Positions 7,585 to 62,794 of a DNA stretch of 64,000 nt are shown in pieces (the first letter of the stretch is position 1; each line of letters begins with the position of its first letter). Origin of the DNA: Lingula anatina. Taxonomy: Eukaryota > Animalia > Brachiopoda. The stretch is from the NCBI GenBank assembly GCA_051362555.1, contig CM120640.1, forward strand, positions 20,832,001 to 20,896,000, read 5' to 3'. The notes beneath the pieces were generated by a model. The model did no database searches and had not been told where the DNA came from. It saw only the letters and a list, made by a program, of their open reading frames with translations. The position numbers and the translations under genes were made by a program.

Positions 7585-8535
7585 CAGGGATGCTAGTGGG
7601 GTCCGGAAAGAAAACCTGAACTTTTTTTTGGCAAAGACGGGGGGGGGGGGGGGGGGGGGGTACAAATTGATTATGAAACAATTACTATATTTCAAATTTT
7701 ATTTAATAAATATATTGCAATATATGTCATCACAACTTAATGGTAATTTTCAACAGTTGTTTCCAAGGATAATCTTGACATTGACAAGATGGAAGTGCCA
7801 TCAGTACATAAACACCTACCACCCATAGTAGACAGTAATGATCCCTCACGTAAGCTTGATAATCACCAGCATGATAATGATAGTCACTAAATGTTAATCC
7901 CTTTCATTTATCATTTTCAAAGATTGGTAATGGCTTTCGTGGTAATGCCCAAGCAACAAAAATGTGTAAAGACAACTACGTGCTTTGGCATGCTTAGTTG
8001 TTTTAGCATGGTTTTTCAGAGCTTTTTTACCACTGCTTCCGTACCGGATCACGTCGTTGCACCATACACACCAAGCTTCTCCGGGGGACTTTCGCTTCCG
8101 AACATAGGTAGAAAAAAAATCGTCATTATTGTCCTTTTCCTCCAGCCAACTCCAACTAAATCTATTTTTGACAGTTATGTCGATGTTTCTAATATCGTCT
8201 GTTCCCCTCTCCGCGAAATCCATTTAGTTTGGTTTAGTTCAAAATTCCGCGCACGCGGTGTCAAAACTTTCCACATGGGTGCCGACATTAAAGCCTACAT
8301 TTCCAACCAATCAAGCGCCATAAATAAATCACGTGCTACGGTTGTGACTAGATATTGTGTTGAAACGCAGCTCTGTCGCAATGGTTGAAATGCGACGTTC
8401 CTCTGACGCATCGTTCGTCCAGTCCGCGACCACGTTAAAAACGAGAATTCCGGAACAAAATATAGTACCAGAAAATTTTATAACTGGACGCAAAAAACCG
8501 GAATTCCGGTAAAAACCGGAAGACTAGCATCCCTG
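7585..8535 (-). mobile_element. non-autonomous internal-deletion derivative of the hAT element at 54090-58120
   Basis: TIR CAGGGATGCTAGT at both ends and 6-bp TSD AAAATT (7579-7584 and 8536-8541). Near-identical to 54090-54653 joined to 57756-58120, in reverse orientation, with a 12-nt filler at the junction. Confidence 0.95.
7894..8223 (-). CDS. 109-aa chimeric ORF of the deleted element: transposase N-terminal BED-like zinc finger fused in frame to the last 19 or so residues of the OTU exon
   Basis: Identical to the start of ORF 54402 (..AWCVWC...LKNHAKTTKH..ARSC), then filler-encoded residues (LYTF), then LLLGHYHESHYQSLKMINERD as in ORF 57603-57821. Expression unknown. Confidence 0.5.
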   Translation of the reverse strand: MDFAERGTDDIRNIDITVKNRFSWSWLEEKDNNDDFFSTYVRKRKSPGEAWCVWCNDVIRYGSSGKKALKNHAKTTKHAKARSCLYTFLLLGHYHESHYQSLKMINERD

Positions 8536-8672: not shown

Positions 8673-10685
8673 TTAAACTCTGGAGCAGTTCCCCATAATG
8701 CTGTAGCATTGTTTTATAGCTTCTTGACAGTTATTATAATCCTGCCAGGGTCTAACCACCAGCTTCTCCAGCAGTCTAATGTGACTAAGCAATATCGGCA
8801 GTGCCGTTTTTGCATCTGCATTCCGCAGTAGTTTTTCCATTGCACTACTAAAAAGCTGTTCAGATCTTTTCAAAACTTGGACCTTAGCTGTAAGATTTTG
8901 CTCCTTGTTACATTTAATGCACTTAGAGACGACTCCCGACATTGCGTTTAGAAGCAATGGGGCCGCACAACTACCGCATTTGAAAATGGGAACTGTGTTG
9001 GGGAGTTGGTCATACTGCAACCAGTTCTCAGCGCAGGGTTGGCACTGACAAATGAAATAATATTGTTCCTTAAGCTTTGCACGTCTTTCTGGGGTAGCTG
9101 ATATGGCACATAAAGCACCATAATTATCGGACACTTCACTGCCCTTTGGCACATTCCGTATGGCACGAACTATACACACGTCTCCTAAGAAATTCCTGGT
9201 CACTGCAGGATCACACGAGTGGTTGAACAAGCTCATCATTGCATAGATGGCAGCACCTATTTCCTTAGTTGTTGAAGTAGCTACATTATCAGGGTCAAGC
9301 TCCAGTTCTGAGATTTCGTGAGCATTGCAAGGTAAATTTTGCAAATGACGTAAAATCAATCCACCGAAATAACAAAGAATAGATTTGTCCACATCTTTTT
9401 CCTGGAAAAATGGCGACTTTTGCAGACATTTTAGAAGGAAAACTGACATGATGGTGCGACGAAATAGATCATTCACTGCTCTGTCTTCTGAGTGAGTGAC
9501 AAGGTTGTAGATCGTTGTATAGTTATCCGACCTATACTGCCCTTTCTCATCGAGACCCCAATCTAATTCACAACAATCGCCCACCCCCTTGTGTTGGACT
9601 AGTTCTCTGAATCCTAACAGAAATTCATAACCTGCCACAAGCACCACTCTTAAAGCTAGGTGACCCATGCCGCCAATGCCACTCTGCTGAATAGTGTCCA
9701 AGTAAGGGCATTCAAACTGATGAAACCTCAACCATCCAGATTGTTTACATTCCTGACTGCAGTATCTAACAGTGCTGCACTCACTGCAGGGTATTGGAGC
9801 CACAAGTTGTTTGAAACAGCTGTGACAATGGCTAACATTGTATGGTTTTAGTAACACCGAGGCAAATGGTTTCTCTATCACAAGGGTGTCTCCAACTTGT
9901 ATGTCACAAGTGGCCACTGGAAACCTGCCTAGTGTAGGGGCAGTGGTCACATCTAAGGCACTGGATGCTGACAGGTACTTCTGGCTCTGTCCATGAGATA
10001 AAACAGGCATGGGCATTGAATCATCAACTGAGTCAGCTGCAGGACACTCACTGTCCGGTGAGGAAATATCTAATTGTTTTAACTGCTTCTCAATTTCTTG
10101 TATAAGTGATTGTTTTTTCTTACTATCAGCAGTACTAAGCTCAACCAGCTGCTTTGCTGTATGAAAACTCTCACATGCCTTGCCCTTTTCCTTCAGCTTG
10201 CTATAGCATTTCCCCTTTCTTTCTTCTAGTTTATACTTAAGCTCATCAGGGTAGTTATTTTCCAAAGACTGTTCAATATCCTTGAGGCAAAGGAAATATT
10301 CTTGCATATGGAATAAAACAGCAGATCTGTTGGCCAGTGCCAGAGACAGATCACTTTCACCGGGTTTATCACAAACAGGAGGTGCGATAATAACACTTTC
10401 ATTGTAAGCCTCCAGTGCCTTTGCATAGAATTTCTTCTGAAACAACTGATTCCCTTTCTTTCTTAGTTTAGTTGATGTCTCTGATGATTTTAAGCTAAGA
10501 GAGGGTTCTACTTGAATTGTTTCATGAAGGCAAGGAAGATCCCACACAAAAGAAAATCTTTCTTCGTCACTTTTTTGTTGGCCAAAGGCAGCTGAAATTT
10601 CCTGCAACTGGCTGCCATCTTTCAGGGTTTGACAGATTCTGTCATACCAGGTATGAAATATACCCTTTTTCTCCTCCACCTCCAT
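8673..10685 (-). CDS. SMYD4: SET and MYND domain lysine methyltransferase, SMYD4-like (670 aa, single coding exon)
   Basis: N-terminal TPRs (GNQLFQKKFYAKALEAYNES; ALANRSAVLF), split SET domain (GRFPVATCDIQVGD...SLFNHSCDP...EVSDNYG), MYND finger (CHSC...CSEC..YCSQEC...H..EC) and post-SET CQCQPC. An acceptor at 10696-10697 suggests an intron in the 5'UTR. Confidence 0.93.
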   Translation of the reverse strand: MEVEEKKGIFHTWYDRICQTLKDGSQLQEISAAFGQQKSDEERFSFVWDLPCLHETIQVEPSLSLKSSETSTKLRKKGNQLFQKKFYAKALEAYNESVIIAPPVCDKPGESDLSLALANRSAVLFHMQEYFLCLKDIEQSLENNYPDELKYKLEERKGKCYSKLKEKGKACESFHTAKQLVELSTADSKKKQSLIQEIEKQLKQLDISSPDSECPAADSVDDSMPMPVLSHGQSQKYLSASSALDVTTAPTLGRFPVATCDIQVGDTLVIEKPFASVLLKPYNVSHCHSCFKQLVAPIPCSECSTVRYCSQECKQSGWLRFHQFECPYLDTIQQSGIGGMGHLALRVVLVAGYEFLLGFRELVQHKGVGDCCELDWGLDEKGQYRSDNYTTIYNLVTHSEDRAVNDLFRRTIMSVFLLKCLQKSPFFQEKDVDKSILCYFGGLILRHLQNLPCNAHEISELELDPDNVATSTTKEIGAAIYAMMSLFNHSCDPAVTRNFLGDVCIVRAIRNVPKGSEVSDNYGALCAISATPERRAKLKEQYYFICQCQPCAENWLQYDQLPNTVPIFKCGSCAAPLLLNAMSGVVSKCIKCNKEQNLTAKVQVLKRSEQLFSSAMEKLLRNADAKTALPILLSHIRLLEKLVVRPWQDYNNCQEAIKQCYSIMGNCSRV

Positions 10686-11379
10686 TGTATTGTTACTGAA
10701 ATGAGAAAAAAAGCATTCAGTGCCCCCTGCTACAACAATATTGTGTTATATTATATTTTGCATTTTATTGCACCTTATCAAAACACAGTCATTGTCCGTA
10801 TAATTTAACCTACCTGTGTTTGCTAAAAACCTTATACATTGTACCGGTAGTGAAGGAGCATGTGAAACACGAGTAATCTGAGATGATAAAATCCAGTGCA
10901 GGTACCCATGTAAGGGCATTGTGAAAGAAAACTGGTACTCCGTTGTGTTGTTGTTCTAGTAGTAGATAGCTTTAACAAGTACCATATTACACACTATACC
11001 TTCTGGATATTCTGCCGTTTCATGAACCCAGTATCGCCTGGATGCACAGAATCAATTCTCAATGCATTCAGCACACTGCTAACGCAGACAACTGGCAGAC
11101 GTCATCATGCATGGAGCATTCTCTCCCACCTATGGGAATGAAAAGTTACTACATGCGAATGAATGGCCCTCTATCGGTGAAATACCCACGCGTAACTCGC
11201 CGGTGGGAAGCGTTTGTGGTCACATTGTTGTGATTTACATGTGAATCATATATAAAACTATTAAATGTAGTGTGTTTGACAGCGCAGATTGCCTAAAATG
11301 TATTATAAAACACCGATAATGTGTTCAGAGATTGAATAAAGAAAAAGGTTTCTGTTCATGTGCTTTGTGTCCACTTCGA

Positions 11380-53325: not shown

Positions 53326-54401
53326 AACTTTACATTTTGTATGCGGAGCCATTGTTTTTTTTTTTTTTTTCAAAATACTCCTGAAATGCTTTTTTCTCAG
53401 CGTTATGCTAGGCATACATGTACAGTGTCTTCCGAAACAGATCACCTCAACGAGTTATGCTTATCACCAAAATGGTTAATAAGGCCTTTTTACTCTTATT
53501 TCTATAATTATATTGTTATAGGTTTATCTCCATTCCAAAAGGGGAAATCAGGTCCGGGTCCAACTGTCATGTGTCTGCAATGGTTTTGGACACAATGTTC
53601 AATGATTCATACAGTTTGTTTATATACTTCTTCTCTGTAGCTGCAATTATCCCTCCAAATCTTGAGGCAGTGATCCGCCATTGTCTCTCCTTGTGTCAGA
53701 TTGCGCTCTTTCCTTGTTATAACTTGCTTACTCAGTGTCCTTCGCTGTTTGTTCCTCAACCTGAAATATTCATATCCCATTAAAGCATGGTAGATGGTTA
53801 CAGCATTAAATAGATACAATTTAGATTAGTTTAGATACAATATTATAATTCTATGATGTCACCTATCACCTAGTTTGATAATTCTTTCTCATATTTGGGT
53901 CCGATTCTTAATAGCAGACCTCTGTTTTCACTTACATCATTCCCTCTATCCATGCTTTATTCTTTTCATGGCACTTGGCAATAGTTGTTGTCCATCACAG
54001 CCGCCTGTAAGTCAGCTTTAGGGTAGGCATTACTGGTGGCTACAGCAATCTTTGCCGCTGATGTGAAGTGATAGGTAAGATTCCTGAAGCAGGGATGCTA
54101 GTCTTCCGGTTTTTACCGGAATTCCGGTTTTTTGCGTCCAGTTATAAAATTTTCTGGTACTATATTTTGTTCCGGAATTCTCGTTTTTAACGTGGTCGCG
54201 GACTGGACGAACGATGCGTCAGAGGGACGTCGCATTTCAACCATTGCGACAGAGCTGCGTTTCAACACAATATCTAGTCACAACCGTAGCACGTGATTTA
54301 TTTATGGCGCTTGATTGGTTGGAAATGTAGGCTTTAATGTCGGCACCCATGTGGAAAGTTTTGACACCGCGTGCGCGGAATTTTTAACTAAACCAAACTA
54401 A

Positions 54402-56904
54402 ATGGATTTCGCGGAGAGGGGAACAGACGATATTAGAAACATCGACATTACTGTCAAAAATAGATTTAGTTGGAGTTGGCTGGAGGAAAAGGACAATAAT
54501 GACGATTTTTTTTCTACCTATGTTCGGAAGCGAAAGTCCCCCGGAGAAGCTTGGTGTGTATGGTGCAACGACGTGATCCGGTACGGAAGCAGTGGTAAAA
54601 AAGCTCTGAAAAACCATGCTAAAACAACTAAGCATGCCAAAGCACGTAGTTGTGTAAAGGGGGCCCAAAAGTTTCCATCTCTATTTAGTTTCAATGCGGG
54701 CTTAGCCAGCGGTGCTGGTGGTGGCAGTACTAGTACTGCGGGGCCTAGTGGCAGCGAAAGCAGACCTAGCGGTGACAGTGAAATTAACAGACTTCCTTAT
54801 GGAGCAGCTCCTAACGTTAGAGGCACGCAGGCAACGGCAGTCCCCCATGTTCAACCGAACGTAAGTTTCCTTGATGGCAAGTTCCATGCAGAGGCAAGGG
54901 TTACAAGTTTCATTGCAGAACATTCATTGCCTTTATCCATTGCTCCTCACCTGATAGATTTATGCAAAGAAATGTCAACTGATGGCCAAGCTTTGAAAAG
55001 TCTGAAAATGGAAAGGGCATCAGCAACTTATAAATTGAAAGAAGGACTCAGTCTCACCATTCGAAAGCGATTAGTATCTGACATGAAGGCAATTTTTTTT
55101 TCACTTAATCTAGACGAGTGTACAGCTAATAACAATGAAAAGGTGCTCGCTATATTAGTCTCCTATTTTGATCCAGAACTAAAAAAGGCAGTTGTGAAAC
55201 ACTATGCATCAGTCAGAATTACTACTGCTACGGCCGATGTTTTATGTTCTACAGTATTAAACTTACTTCAGGATGATGGCATTCCATTGTCAAATTTCAT
55301 ATCTCTCTTAACTGATTCAGCCAGTACTATGAGGGGGAAAATTGGAGGACTACAGCAAAAGCTAAAAGAAAAAGGGTGTGAACATTTACTTGATATTGAT
55401 GGCGATTTTTGCCATCATATTAATAATATTGTGAGAGAATTTTGTTCCCATTTTGACAGACTTGTAGAAGGACTTTTGGACGATTTATTCTCAGAATTTA
55501 AATACAGTAAGGACTTGGCAGGATGGCTGAGAGACTTGTGCCTAGTACTTGGAGGGTGCGTCATAGGTGGTTGTCAGTGTATGACATCCTTGTTGATGAC
55601 TTTAATATGATTGATGCATTTACAGTTTTTTACTTTTCTCTTCTTCCCAAAGACTCTGTATATATGTATAAAGAACTTATTGAGACCATTCCCAGCAACA
55701 GAGGTGTCACAGATAAGGGGAAGAAAAGTATCCATACTATACAGGATAAATGCAAGAGGAAATACAAGGCTTCAACACCAGAGGGAAAACAGAGAAAACA
55801 AAGAATAGTGACTAAATTGTTTTATATTAGAGATCAAACATTGTTGCACATACATCTGTACATGTCAATCTTGCCCATGTTCAAGTCAATGATTTTGACA
55901 TTTGAGCAGAAGTTGTGCCTTGTGCACAAAATGCATGAAGATATGGTAACCCTTGTAAAAGACTTTCTAGTCTGCTTTTTGAAGCATGAGGAAGTTAAGG
56001 ACTTGTCATCGAAGCGATTGAAACAGTTAGTAATTACTGAAGACATGTACATGAAAATTGATGACATTTTCATAGGTTCAGAGACTTCTGAAAAACTGGA
56101 TTGTATGTCTGTCAAGATAAAGCAGGAGTTCAGACAAAAGACACAGACAGCGTACAAAAGTACAGCCAAGTACATGCTCAAGAAGTTACCCATTTTAAAC
56201 CCTCTTTTAAGAAGACTCTCAGCTGTTGATCCAAGTGCTCAAGGACATTCCCTGACATACAGGCTACTTTTCAAACTGGCTGACCACTTTCCAACAGTTG
56301 TGCCTCACTCTAATCTTGACACTTACAGAATGGAGATTTCAGCACTACAAATAGATAAGCACCTACCAACCATACCAGACAATACTAATGACATGACAAT
56401 TGATCAATGGTGGTCAAAAGTAGGAGACACTGGGAAATACCCAATATTATGGGCTTTGATAAGGGCAGTGTTAAGTATTTCTGTGTCTCCGAATGTAGAG
56501 CAAAGCTTTAGTATCATGAACAATCTGATTACTGCAAAAACAAATTTGTTGGATATTACCACATATTCAGCATACCAAGACATAAAGTATGATCTTGGTG
56601 CAAGGGGCACCTCTACAATGAAATTGTACCACAGAGCTGATGCACAAAAATCACCAGTGGACAATTAAATCACTTTGCTATCATATGCAGACTAGTTACG
56701 GGAGATACAAAAAGAAAATGGACTCTAAAACTAAGGCACGCAAAGAAAAACTAAAAGAATTAGATGCTGTTTCAAAAGATAGACTGACAGTCCATAGCAC
56801 AGCAAAACAAATAAAAAAGTCCATATATGCCAAGGCCAGTGAAAGGAACGTGACAGTACCAGTCAGTGCCTGGCCAGCAGAAGAAATACCTTCTGTCTTG
56901 AATG
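54402..56904 (+). pseudogene. hAT transposase exon with two frameshifts (about 55550 and about 56665)
   Basis: BED-like finger (WCVWC...H....H), DDE motifs FSLNLDECT, LLTDSASTMRG and SPNVEQSFS, plus DGDFCHH, HRWLS and the dimerisation-region DQWWS. Split over ORFs 54402-55610, 55523-56668 and 56640-56933; ends at donor AATG|GTAAGA (56904). Confidence 0.9.
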
Positions 56905-57121
56905 GTAAGAATGTTTGTTTTACATTTTGCTGAATACCTGTAAATAGTGTCATTTAGTTAAGTTCAGAAATTCTAAAGCAGTGAGATAGAAAAATCTAGG
57001 CAGTACACAAAGAGAGAACATGGAGATAACAGCAGGCAGATAATAATGGGAGTTTTACTGACTAGAATCTTGTACTGTTATATATGTTATTGTGTTTCAT
57101 AGATAGCATGTCATCTTTCAG

Positions 57122-57821
57122 AGAATCTCCAAGAGCGACAAAGAGGGATTGATGCAAGTGAGAGACTTCGATGCAATGTCAAGACCAGTGGGATGCTTTT
57201 CCGTGGACGGACACCTGGTGATGGGAATTGTTTTTTTCATGCAGTGGCTGATCAGTGCAGGCGTTTGCGATTGCATCATGGAATAACCCATAAAGAAATC
57301 AGAGCACAGGCTGTTGATTATCTTAGGGTAATGTATTCTAATTTATTTGTAATTGTGTAAATTTATGTAGTTTAATTTATTTCCAATAAAACAGTTTTGA
57401 TGATTTTGAAGTAATCCATTGTTTATTCTGATAATGACCTTAACTTTGTTATTGGTACATCAGAGATTTATTAATGATACAGACAAGGTTGTAGATTGAT
57501 CCAAAACTTATTGTGTTTAAATGTCCTGTTTGATTGTCCTTTTAGGTACACCAAGAGTTTGCTCCCTATGTTGTTGGTGATTATGTTACCTACCTGAGCA
57601 AGATGTCCAAAGATGGAGAGTGGGCAGATAATGTGGTGATTGAGGCAACTGCCAAAGTGTTGGGGTGTAAACTACACATAGTGACCAGTTCTGCAGAGGG
57701 GTCAGAAACAGATGTTTTAGAAACTTTGATTAATGAGACTGCAGTTGGAGCCCCATTGTTGCTTGGGCATTACCACGAAAGCCATTACCAATCTTTGAAA
57801 ATGATAAATGAAAGGGATTAA
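57122..57821 (+). CDS. OTU-family cysteine protease (deubiquitinase-like) domain; two exons inside the hAT element
   Basis: Exon 57122-57327 reads ...RTPGDGNCFFHAVADQ...THKEIRAQAVDYLR (Cys codon 57229-57231). Exon 57546-57821 reads VHQEF...YLSKMSKDGEWADNVVIEATAKVLGCKLHIVTS...LLLGHYHESHYQSL (His codon 57783-57785). Both introns are GT-AG and in phase with the transposase C-terminal frame. Confidence 0.88.
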
Positions 57822-58287
57822 CATTTAGTGACTATCATTATCATGCTGGTGATTATCAAGCTTACGTGAGGGATCATTACTGTCTACTATGGGTGGTAGG
57901 TGTTTATGTACTGATGGCACTTCCATCTTGTCAATGTCAAGATTATCCTTGGAAACAACTGTTGAAAATTACCATGAAGTTGTGATGACATATATTGCAA
58001 TATATTTATTAAATAAAATTTGAAATATAGTAATTGTTTCATAATCAATTTGTCCCCCCCCCCCCGGTCTTTGCCAAAAAAAAGTTCAGATTTTCTTTCC
58101 GGACCCCACTAGCATCCCTGCTGAAGTAATCATTTTATCCTGCTCTTGAAGTTGGCTGTCCTGGGGTCCTGAAATCGACAGTTTCAGGCTTTGCCCCCGA
58201 TATATGGGCCTTCTTTGGGTAACCTTATAAAGAAAATAAATAAGTACATTTACTAAGTATAAAAATCTTGCGTGCTACTAAAACAAA

Positions 58288-61200
58288 ATAATAATAATAA
58301 TAATAATTTATTGAGCACTGAAATGTTTTTACATTTAGAGGCTCTCTAACTACTATACATTATACATACGAAAAGATAGTAATGATAGTAAGTAAATGAA
58401 AGAGAGAAAAAAAAAATTATACTTATATAATGTTACACAATATACATTCTCTTAATATGCAGGTGAGATGCATGAAATCATTTGTGCACTTCCAGTTAAT
58501 TACGTTTTTTCATAATTTTACTTACAAAATTCCCTACTGCAATCGCACTCTGCTCAGTGGGTGGGTTTAGAATGATGTCAAGCTGTTTGACCTCGTCTGT
58601 TAGACCTTGCAAGTTTACCTCTGGTATGCATTCAAACAGCAATTTCCTTTCAATTTTGTGATGGGCGCATTTTAGGAAAAAATGTATTTCATCTTCTACC
58701 TCATTACAATGAGGGCATTTTCGTTCTGAAAGTTGTGTTTTTGGGATTGTATGCCGCCCTTTTTCAATTTCTAGGTCATGGTCACTAATTCGCATTTTTG
58801 CCAAAAGTTTTTTGTGGGTGCGTGAAATATTCATTTTTAAGTATGGTTCGGGTTCATATTGATGTTTAATTTTCCTGTATGTCCTCAGCTTATTATTTTC
58901 CTCTCTGTGTAACTCTTCCCAAAAATCTGATTTTATTTTGATGGTTATGTCACTTTCTAGATTTTGGTTATTGTGAATTTTATTGACAGTTAGTGTTGAA
59001 TTTGAGTGATTTAATCCCCAACATGTAGCCAAGTTTGACATTGCCCAAAACCAGTTTTTTTCCCTTTTTGCTTGTTCTCTATTGTATGCTTGCTTAACAA
59101 TTCTTTGCTCTGGAAGGTTATTCAGCCTTTCACTGTATCTTAATACTAATTTAACAATGTCCAAGTATAATGGGAGGCGCCCAAGTTCTGCACGGCAGGC
59201 ATTATTGCTAGCTGACCTTCTCACACCAAGTGCCCATTTACACATCTTTAAATGTATTTGTTCAAAGGGCATTTTGTTTATTTTATTTAATGATATTTTT
59301 TTCTCTGTGAAGATTTCTTGGGCCCAGATTTCACATCCATATAAGAGAATGGGTTTAATCATCTTGTCGAAAAGATTCATGATAAGTATGGGTGATGAAA
59401 TTTCTTGCGATGCTAGTATTCCCTTTAGAGTAAACATGGCTTTCAGGGCTTTTTGCTTGAGATTTTCAATTGAATGTTTTAATGATCCTGTGTTAGTAAA
59501 GACTATCCCGAGGTATGAGTATTGTTTGACTATTTCTATTGGTCTGCTATTTATAAAGAAGGTGTGTGGTTCAATTCTACCAGACTTGTTGAACACTATT
59601 ATTTTTGATTTGTTTTCATTAACTTTTAGTTTCCACTGCTTACAGTAATTTTCAAGGTTGTTAAGAAGAGTTTGAAGTCCTTCTTTCGACTGTGATAGCA
59701 AGACTAGGTCATCTGCATATAAAATGTGTTTTAACCCTTCAACTTCCTTTGCACTATTGTTTGTGTAGAGTTCACTTTTTAAATCATCAATGAAGATGTT
59801 GAATAGGACTGGGCTAAGGTTGTCTCCTTGTCTTATACCTATTTTAGATATGAATGTTTGGGTGTAGCCACAATTAACTGACACGCCTAGTCTTGTGTTG
59901 CTGTACATATACTTTATCAACTTGTAAATTTTGCCTCTGACACCTATTTTCAGTAATTTCAGCATAAGACCCTTATGCCAGACTGTATCAAAAGCTTTTC
60001 GCAGGTCGACGAAACAGGCAAATACACGTTTGTTCTGATTCATATGTTTGTTTATAATTGACTTTAAGGTGAATATATGGTCAGTCGTGCGATAACCAGG
60101 TCTAAACCCTGCTTGTTCCTCACTTAATTTCTCATTGGACTCTAAAAATAGTGTGAGTCTGTTAGTCAATATGCAGTTAAAAAGCTTTCCAAGACAGCTG
60201 GTGATGCAAAGACCTCTGTAATTTGATGGGTCAGTTCGTTCTCCAGATTTATATAGCGGCAGTATTATACCCAGATTCCACACATCAGGAGTTTCAGATG
60301 TGTTCATTGCTAAATTGAATATTTTTGTTATTAGTCCCACTAAGTATATTGAACCACTTTTCAACATTTCATTTCTGATAGAGTCCTCACCAGCCGCTTT
60401 TCCATTTTTCAATTTTTTTATAGCTGTTTTTACCTCTCTAATGCTTATGGGGTTATTAAGGACAGGGTCTCCTTCTTTTTTCTCATATTCACTTATTTCC
60501 TTATCTATTCGGTGATCATCAGTAGGGGGGGTTCCACAAAGTTGTTGGAAGTGTAGTTGCCAAGTCTCAGGACTTATTATGTTGTTATTTTCTTCTCTAT
60601 CCTTTAGTTTTTTAAGTGTCTGCCAGAATTCTTTAGGATTGCTTTTTTCAGATACTAGTAGTCTGTCTAGGATGGCATTTTTGTACTCATTCTTTCTTTG
60701 CTTTACTAGTTGTTTATATTTCTTTGTAGCTAGGTGGTAGGTTTGCGAGATGTAGTTATTGTGTGGATTTTTTTGTAGTAGTTTACCAAGGTGTTTTATA
60801 TTTCTTCTGACTTCAGAACACATGCTGTCAAACCATGGTTGTTTTTTTATTCTTTTTGTTTGTTTATTTGATCTCATGCTTATGTTATTGACTTTTTTAC
60901 GCAAAGACAAGTTTGCAGCATTTTCAATTATATTTGTTAATTCATCACAGGCACTTTTTAATCCTTCTTTAGACGAGGGGAAGTATTTGTTTTGTGCTAG
61001 ACTGATTTGTTTTAAGCTGTCCTCACTTTCAAGAGCTTTTAAAAATTTCTCAGTTGAATCTGTTTCCCAGATGTAACGGTCTTTGAAATTTTGTAATGAT
61101 TGAGTTGGAGATGATTCTTTGATACCGGTGGTGTGAATTGCAAGGTCTAACAGACAGTGATCTGATAAATAATCAATAGGTAATACTGTAAGATACATAA

Positions 61201-61625
61201 TTTTGCTCATCAGTCCATCGTTTGTGATTGCATAATCAACTGTACTGCACCCATGTATATTATAACAAGTTGGATATCCGAGAGAGTTGCCTTTAGTTCT
61301 ACCATTGAGTATCCTTAAGTTACTACTTCTACATAATTCAAGTAAGGCCTTTCCTTGCGAGTTGACTATTGTATCAACATTATTTCTCTTTTGTGAAAAT
61401 CTGTTTGTAGGATAACTATCAGTCATTTGAATTCCAAACATGGTATCATCTTTGATGAAATCAGGTAGTGTCCCCGTTCTTGCATTGAAATCTCCAATTA
61501 AGCAAATTGACCCATATGATTGGTAAGTTGCAATTTCACCTTCAAGTATTTCTAGGGTTTCTTCATCTGAGGGGCCATTGCCCGGTTTAATATAAACTGC
61601 ACATAGGAATAAATCATCCTCTAAA
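58288..61625 (-). mobile_element. 5'-truncated non-LTR retrotransposon (LINE, tentatively RTE-X-like)
   Basis: AATAAA followed by a (TTA)n tail at 58288-58311 on the - strand, a 3'UTR of about 190 bp, and an ORF2 frame open from about 61625 to 58496. No TSD seen. Confidence 0.9.
58496..61625 (-). CDS. LINE ORF2: partial AP endonuclease, reverse transcriptase and C-terminal CCHC-like motif
   Basis: The frame extends upstream of the annotated Met 61441 (LFLCAVYIKP...IGDFNAR). Endonuclease motifs STVDY and SDH; RT motifs NYRGL, QAGFR, DLRKAFD, GIRQGDNLSP, YADD and YLG; C-terminal CPHC..EDEIHFFLKC. No stops over more than 1,000 codons. Confidence 0.92.
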
Positions 61626-62794
61626 TAAATAAATCACATTCAAAATATGAGCGTAGGCCTACTCGTACCTACAGTAGTCTACATGTACATAACATGTCAG
61701 ATTTGACACACACACCTCGACTAATTTTTGATTTTTTCAAGGAAAATCGTCAGCATTCGTGTTTTTCAAGCACTAAATGAAAAGAAAACACATACCTTCC
61801 AGTCAATTCACATTTTCATCCAGATGTTATGGCACCACATTCAAGTAAATTGCGTTTGAGTTGGTTCACTGTCAGCGACGCGTGCACACGCTCCATGTTA
61901 AACTCTGGTGTAAAGCCGTGAGCGAAATTCTGCGAGATTTTAGAAGGACTGCTTTCACCCCCACGCCATCTAGCGGCAGACCCTTAAAGCGGGTATTCCC
62001 CATTGATCACATATTTTGTAAAGTGATCATATACCACAGTGCCAAGAAAGCGTCGGGCGTAAAAAGTTTTACTTCAGCAGTGAGACCAAAAGAAAGTTTT
62101 CTGGCATTACATTTGCAAAACAGTAACTTTGCATCTGTAGCTAAATCCTTGTTGCTTGTTCTAAAACCGGATTTGGAGCTCTTACTTATTCTCATTTGGC
62201 TCCACAAGGGCAAAAGTGTCACCTGGGCCAACTACATGTAGACCGGTCTTCCCTTTGTGTACTTCTCAAACGAACATGCTAGCATTTGTGACGTATGTTA
62301 CAGATAGATATAGGGAGCCAAAGGGTGATCTGGTGTGAAACGTGACTTTTGATTTCATGATATCTTTCTAAAGCATACAAACATTTTATTATCTATACCA
62401 AACACACAGCTGAACCATAATTAGAAGCAAATAATGAACATTGAACAATCCTCTGTCAGTGTTAGCGTCTTAACTGTGTTGCGTAAAATAGGCCAGTATT
62501 CATCCCATTCTTCCTATATATGAACCCAAAAAGTTTTGTTCCTATGAAGTTTTTTCATTTATTCAGGGTCCCATGGACCATAGAGCAAGTCTAGCTTGGT
62601 TGTCACTGGCAACCTTGGATAAATTTATTTATTCAAGATGACCGCCAATTTCAATTTCAACTGAACATAGAGGTTTGCATAATACCTGGCCCTTATAATT
62701 AACACCGATCTGAGCGTGGTGTGTAACGAGGTATAAATTCACAGAGATTGTCTGGCGCAAGTCCATATAAAGCAGCATGAGCATATATTAAAAG

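Follow-up and report, generated by a model that had tools for sequence, protein, structure and literature searches.

Within a 64,000-nucleotide stretch of the genome of the brachiopod Lingula anatina (GenBank assembly GCA_051362555.1, contig CM120640.1, positions 20,832,001 to 20,896,000 of the forward strand; hereafter the window), positions 54090 to 58120 hold a broken 4-kb, single-gene copy of a DNA transposon that is young and hAT6-like. Its gene is predicted to splice a hAT transposase and an OTU domain into one chain of about 1000 amino acids (aa), and we propose that the OTU domain, lying C-terminal to the transposase, would work as a deubiquitinase (DUB) on or beside it. Taken as a whole, the reading of this protein as a self-protecting transposase–OTU fusion seems to us evenly poised between right and wrong. 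The parts of the element are as follows (coordinates are those of the window; X numbers denote sequencing runs).

54084..54089, unstranded: left target site duplication (TSD), 6 bp (CTGAAG), from the letters and from empty-site reads
54090..54102, plus strand: left terminal inverted repeat (TIR), 13 bp, from the sequence
54402..56904, plus strand: coding exon 1 with the hAT transposase, from a BED-like finger through DDE core and dimerisation domain to a basic tail, broken by two frameshifts
54555..54632, plus strand: BED-like Cys2-His2 finger, aa 52-77, its pattern conserved in an alignment of relatives
55551..55552, plus strand: frameshift 1, 25 nt fewer than in other copies (contigs of X2, X3 and X10 contain them, X1 does not)
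56360..56563, plus strand: hAT C-terminal dimerisation domain PF05699 (Pfam E=3.1e-8, 33.7 bits)
56663..56666, plus strand: frameshift 2, 4 nt more than in other copies (absent from contigs of X2, X3 and X10)
56905..57121, plus strand: intron 1, GT-AG, phase 1, from the sequence; depth arithmetic in X16 fits one spliced read pair
57122..57327, plus strand: coding exon 2, linker and N-terminal half of OTU, catalytic Cys at 57229-57231 (Pfam OTU E=1.8e-4; OTUD3 in PDB, E=0.003)
57328..57545, plus strand: intron 2, GT-AG, phase 0, from the sequence; depth arithmetic in X15 fits two spliced reads
57546..57821, plus strand: coding exon 3, C-terminal half of OTU, GEW box, catalytic His at 57783-57785, Gln at His+2, stop (Pfam OTU E=1.4e-6; ESM Atlas; alignments)
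58108..58120, minus strand: right TIR, 13 bp, from the sequence
58121..58126, unstranded: right TSD, 6 bp, from the sequence

A preliminary description of this DNA had placed two GT-AG exons encoding an OTU domain downstream of the transposase, and both are borne out: intron 1 opens with GT at 56905 and closes with AG at 57121, intron 2 runs from GT at 57328 to AG ending at 57545, and a stop codon closes the last exon at 57821. The donor after 56904 and the acceptor before 57122 agree in phase (1/1), as had been claimed, as do the borders of intron 2 (0/0); the spliced tail is open, and the first donor is consensus-like (GTAAGA). Pfam OTU (PF02338) matches the exon 2 frame over model positions 1-39 (22.5 bits, cut-off 23.3) and exon 3 over positions 43-115 (29.3 bits, above the cut-off alone), and the two exons therefore match consecutive parts of one OTU model. 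ESM Atlas places exon 3 with OTU clusters (0.95).

The catalytic Cys and His are intact (Cys878 and His990 in the 1001-aa model described below, 112 aa apart) and the residue two after the His is Gln, all as first described. The Cys loop is in register with that of OTUD3, and the His with the His box of OTUD5 and of the nairovirus L-protein OTU in weak alignments (E about 0.5). Human OTUD1, OTUD3 and OTUD5 and the nairovirus domain, all of them PDB matches, thus share with the window domain a compact OTU core in which Cys loop, Trp box and His box are in register; the window domain differs in its Gln at the third catalytic position, and the sequence matches are weak (E 0.003-0.9). An OTU reduced to a Cys-His dyad is reported to keep poor but real DUB activity (PMC3744425), and dyad-only enzymes of the OTU family are described (PMC3744425, PMC10318531). 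With Cys and His present and Gln at the third site, the predicted domain is rather more apt to have DUB activity than to lack it, judging from its residues.

Exon 1 supplies the transposase. PF05699 (Dimer_Tnp_hAT) scores well above its cut-off of 21.4 bits, in keeping with the hAT assignment made earlier. The two frameshifts noted in the preliminary description are real differences from the copies in X2, X3 and X10, namely the 25 nt missing behind 55551 and the 4 extra nt at 56663-56666. Reading through them (N at break 1, break 2 closed as in the other runs) gives 1001 aa without a stop. This model has a DDE triad (D238, D305, E708), a DxxH motif (D335-x-x-H338, with H338 invariant in 19 of 19 alignment rows) and R397-W398; the roles of these residues are assigned from the hAT motifs (DDE, (C/D)xxH, RW). 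The single BED-DDE-dimerisation-OTU protein of some 990 aa that had been predicted therefore stands in its open frame, DDE residues, PF05699 and OTU, whereas its BED part consists of the Cys2-His2 pattern only: zf-BED has no Pfam match on the window open reading frame (ORF), with sub-threshold matches on three of 18 relatives (P0117, P0010, P0022). Pfam matches are of hAT type only, and a Ginger1-type Gypsy-like integrase was not found among them.

Ten DNA runs of one species label contain 74-92% of sampled window words, and four of these (X1, X2, X3 and X10) were compared. Full-length copies without the OTU exons would have told against a fusion; the exons are part of the element in 4/4 runs. 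Both frameshifts are absent from three of the four, the exception being X1, which has the window version and may not be independent of the window. Transposase and OTU exons are linked, without either frameshift, on a 3086-bp contig of X10 (54660-57611) and a 2881-bp contig of X3 (54762-57654), with which X2 agrees in pieces. Within exon 1 the contigs differ by in-frame indels, a 33-nt deletion in X2 and X3 and a 15-nt insertion in X10; X10 also shows an insertion of 1 nt and a deletion of 9 nt in intron 2. Between X3 and X10, among the differences listed, we count 11 differences in 2110 transposase bases, seven in 426 intron bases and none in 272 OTU exon bases; the shortfall in OTU exons relative to introns is weak (Fisher p=0.047).

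Evidence for splicing comes from four RNA runs of raw reads under the same label, sampled to about 6% (X15, X16, X18) or 25% (X21) of their size, in which coverage lies mostly at the element ends and comes from deleted derivatives. X16 has 12 placed reads, two of them with the 33-nt deletion of the intact-type copy. At intron 1, these two, the mates of one pair, leave exon 1 at 56903 (72 letters, or 2 x 36), the G at 56904 fitting either side; depth is zero in the bin 56948-57051, and 91 letters lie from 57121 on. Only with these 91 letters does the pair reach 301-302 letters, the length of two full reads, which leaves none of the 12 reads unexplained. At intron 2, X15 has 60 letters in the bin 57428-57574, which fits two spliced reads with 30 exon letters each. 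From these read-depth tables we infer that both introns are spliced, with about one molecule per junction, so that the arithmetic fits one read pair for each of the junctions predicted earlier (56904-57122 and 57327-57546).

The proposal of a TIR-bounded hAT transposon at 54090-58120 holds, with a perfect 13-bp TIR at both ends and a hAT transposase, and a TSD can now be added. Empty-site reads (22 in X18, one in X15) run from 54083 directly to 58121 with an overlap of six letters, and both copies in the window, the second being the deleted derivative listed below, show six letters; the TSD is therefore 6 bp long. A canonical hAT element (Ac, Buster), with its 8-bp TSD, is ruled out by these same sites. 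A hAT6 group of the hAT superfamily was reportedly described by Kapitonov and Jurka in Repbase Reports in 2007. In PMC12730594 this group is defined by its 6-bp TSD, and the window element resembles it in having such a TSD at both copies, a short TIR and hAT transposase motifs; it differs in its OTU domain, which goes unmentioned in the available part of the hAT6 description in PMC12730594. The element is hAT6-like by the length of its TSD, and hAT6 families of Repbase are placed inside the Blackjack lineage. Its surroundings, at 53900-54089 and 58121-58300, belong to another high-copy, transcribed repeat, and there are empty-site reads. Domestication is unlikely, given the insertion within a repeat, the derivatives elsewhere and the fact that X1 has the frameshifted version only.

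A second kind of OTU tail emerged among the relatives of the transposase. HMMER with the C-terminal half of the transposase found 1232 relatives at E<=0.001, of which the best 150 were examined together with P0001, this last being the one match among 2021 candidates when the same half was compared with longer proteins, and itself without OTU. Two of the 151, P0096 and P0151, have a different C-terminal domain in the same frame as the transposase, and a search with that domain returned 35 proteins, several of them named vertnin-like. Eight of the 35 also contain a related hAT transposase.

Vertnin-type carriers: Babylonia areolata XP_076440671.1 (P0157) and XP_076446314.1 (P0159); EukProt transcript P0096; P0151, P0155, P0156, P0158 and P0160

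All eight keep Cys and His. Pfam OTU stays below threshold on them (best E=2e-4), ESM Atlas places the domain with OTU clusters (0.92), and an AlphaFold model of P0155 (mean pLDDT 78) has its best structure matches in the OTU domains of VCPIP1 and A20 (E 2e-4 and 7e-4). Vertnin is listed as an inactive OTU homologue in humans (PMC10318531). The carriers resemble the window protein in belonging to the same wider transposase family (24-32% identity) and in having, C-terminal to the dimerisation domain, an OTU fold that keeps Cys and His. They differ in their A20/VCPIP1-like fold, in a Cys-to-His distance of about 160-170 aa as against 112, in a PIP-like end motif and in coming from other transposase clades; the vertnin-type profile scores 3.5 bits on the window protein.

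These clades come from a quick tree, with an unresolved backbone, that was built on 69 transposase cores: that of the window, those of the eight carriers and those of the first 60, in order of id, among 100 further eligible proteins. The window falls in a 19-row clade (SH-aLRT 99) that includes none of the carriers, all eight of which lie in two other supported clades (5/5 and 3/7 rows); the nearest transposases, P0001, P0002 and P0005, have no OTU in their called frames. That separate clades have OTU domains of two subfamilies at this one position speaks for two gains or more, and on these comparisons the hAT lineage is likely to have gained an OTU more than once. A bolder reading, which we hold tentatively and with rather less than even confidence, is that in one animal hAT lineage the C-terminal slot was filled independently at least twice by different OTU subfamilies, a compact, spliced OTUD-like domain here and a vertnin-like domain in the two further clades, as a counter-defence against ubiquitin-based host control.

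Several further observations concern the carriers. A PIP-box-like C-terminal motif, by a pattern not taken from a database, is present in all eight and in 11 of the 124 top relatives whose sequence extends as far as the catalytic Glu (two of the 11 being among the eight); P0014, P0029, P0049, P0069, P0098 and P0117 are proteins with the motif outside the eight. In the carriers the vertnin-like OTU is placed between the dimerisation domain and this motif, which is absent from the window protein. The vertnin-like domain is found, too, in P0176, P0179 and P0183 with precomputed PF03184 (pogo-type DDE) and PF05225 (HTH_psq), and this suggests that the module may move between transposon superfamilies.

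In the scheme that we propose, the DDE enzyme would, as its family relationships imply, cut and paste the element and its derivatives, whilst the tethered OTU would strip ubiquitin from the transposase complex, which would thereby live longer in the face of proteasomal turnover. An alternative target would be ubiquitin on proteins at the excision break. Self-protection is favoured on two grounds: a domain attached in cis would reach its own complex before any other target, and in related transposases the same C-terminal position is taken by a second OTU subfamily.

A number of results weigh against this. Ubiquitination of a hAT transposase was not found in the literature, among the matches listed. 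At His+2, where the window has Gln, OTUD5 has Asn and the nairovirus OTU Asp (in the weak alignments above), and a search with exon 3 among longer proteins gave no close relative of the window OTU (0/138 candidates). Amongst the related transposases, the window type of OTU occurs in 0 of 151 (the best 150 of 1232 and P0001), a weak test: most are taken from collections of contigs in which genes were probably called without regard to introns, so that spliced exons would be invisible, and the unspliced window frame is equally devoid of OTU. Related loci numbered five of 196 in metagenomes, and were found in neither viral contigs (0/35 and 0/160 pattern matches) nor prokaryote genomes (0/138); none of the five has an OTU, again a weak test, as only L004 extends more than 600 bases beyond the transposase match. 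Exon 1 changes are mostly non-synonymous (11 of 12 in X10 and 8 of 8 in X3, among the changes listed), and the compared copies show no purifying selection on anything, as expected for drift after insertion; on the OTU exons they are too similar to one another to reveal it. In the RNA, no splice joint reaches a threshold of three reads in the four runs (sampled 6-25%), the two predicted junctions included; X18 and X21 have almost no interior reads, and support amounts to one inferred pair per intron, in two runs of four. An X16 pair in the opposite mate orientation runs unspliced into intron 2 (it may be antisense RNA or DNA), and the unspliced frame stops at 56933, giving a transposase of ordinary length.

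Some of these points are shared by the most serious rival explanation, which we nevertheless think unlikely, namely that the two OTU exons are passengers captured from the host or from another transposon, the splicing being real and the domain neutral or nearly dead but not yet decayed. The Gln at His+2, the absence of an OTU from the called frames of the three nearest transposases and the want of a selection signal among the copies all fit such a capture, and an antisense transposase relic at the 3' end of the element (described below) indicates that foreign pieces have been taken in. A passenger sits less well with a domain that is complete (Cys, GEW box, His) over two exons of matching phase, with the failure of the exon 3 search to find a close host-like source, with the presence of the second OTU type in this place in two further clades or, weakly, with the dearth of differences in the OTU exons relative to the introns.

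Less probable still is that the gene makes two products, most transcripts keeping intron 1 or ending early to yield a plain transposase of about 845 aa, with the OTU fusion a lesser isoform, or one confined to certain tissues, by which activity is tuned. The stop at 56933 would give a length like that of P0001 (873 aa) or P0010 (815 aa), there is the one unspliced pair in X16, and AATAAA occurs at 57385 in intron 2; against this, the sole pair that spans the donor is consistent with splicing, that donor is close to consensus and the unspliced pair, from its orientation, may be antisense RNA or DNA. Finally, a functional domain with some other role (binding ubiquitin, cleaving a ubiquitin-like modifier, acting on repair or silencing factors, or cleaving itself off the transposase) is the least probable of the three. 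In its favour, Bao et al. suggest that Ginger1 proteases act on DNA repair factors (PMC2836005), some viral OTUs are reported to process their own polyprotein (PMC3744425), and the PIP-box-like motif of all eight vertnin-type carriers points to PCNA sites; against it, the window protein has no such motif.

The element has to be set beside known transposon-borne proteases. According to PMC2836005, Ginger1 transposases have a C-terminal OTU or Ulp1 domain, Mutator elements carry Ulp1 and Helitrons carry OTU. Ginger1 has an intron-containing transposase gene inside TIRs, a C-terminal OTU (PF02338), invertebrate hosts and a function that is proposed only, in all of which the window element is similar; Ginger1 differs in its Gypsy-like integrase and in TIRs of 45-270 bp (PMC2836005, Table 1), where those here are 13 bp long and go with a transposase of hAT type and a 6-bp TSD. 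The window element works like the Ginger1–OTU arrangement but is not a Ginger element. Helitrons and Helentrons also carry deubiquitinase folds, OTU or VTD, but are rolling-circle RepHel elements without a DDE transposase; the Helitron-borne VTD-class DUBs are active enzymes, for which protection from proteasomal degradation was proposed by authors who call transposon OTUs untested (Erven et al., PMC9741609).

The OTU had been mentioned, tentatively, as a possibly undescribed feature of hAT transposases. No paper describing the pairing was found among the matches listed in searches of the openly available literature; Repbase Reports, Dfam and supplementary tables could contain a case. OTU is not mentioned in PMC5718144 and is named only as a filter term in PMC5751038. 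The claim of novelty is narrowed on two sides, a C-terminal transposase OTU being already published for Ginger1 (PMC2836005) and hAT transposases with an OTU-fold tail being already present, without a family name, in public protein sets. The theme of a deubiquitinase on a transposon is therefore in print, whilst the hAT case and its repeated capture were not found there.

Several transposon superfamilies carry DUB-like domains, a list to which hAT is now added; for their purpose Bao et al. offered no more than a proposal (PMC2836005). If different OTU types were gained repeatedly at one position, this would point to hosts controlling transposases through ubiquitin-dependent turnover; an intact, recently mobile copy makes repeated capture as counter-defence directly testable. 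The hAT superfamily has well-established transposition assays. In a single-gene element of this size with naturally intact copies, wild type and Cys-to-Ala could be compared for enzyme activity, half-life and jumping.

Two further features are as follows.

7585..8535, minus strand: internally deleted derivative, 951 bp, with its own 6-bp TSD (AAAATT), joining 564 bp of the 5' end (99.5%) to 365 bp of the 3' end (96%)
57878..57968, minus strand: antisense relic in the 3' untranslated region, derived from part of a related transposase, 91 bp, 70% DNA identity to 56288-56384 (score 52 against <=31 in 200 shuffles)

At least four further deletion derivatives are seen as read joints (54434-57780, 54653-57756, 54787-57625 and a diverged 54941-57419), and depth in X2 is roughly 10-40 times higher at the element ends than in the interior. 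Full-length copies are thus few and derivatives, with near-identical ends, many, which fits recent mobilisation. At the protein level the relic is 44% identical to aa 638-671. Its pairing with 56288-56384 has an energy of -75.5 kcal/mol (best of 100 shuffles, -47.9), and the abundant derivatives retain the relic, which could therefore feed double-stranded RNA against the transposase. Elsewhere in the window, the 951-bp derivative lies just before an open frame of SET-MYND-TPR (SMYD-like) type that occupies 8673-10745 of the minus strand, some 90 bases beyond the stop of that frame, and 375 bases from the full-length element an unbroken LINE-type ORF of 1045 aa with a reverse transcriptase domain (E=1.5e-40) occupies 58496-61633, also on the minus strand.

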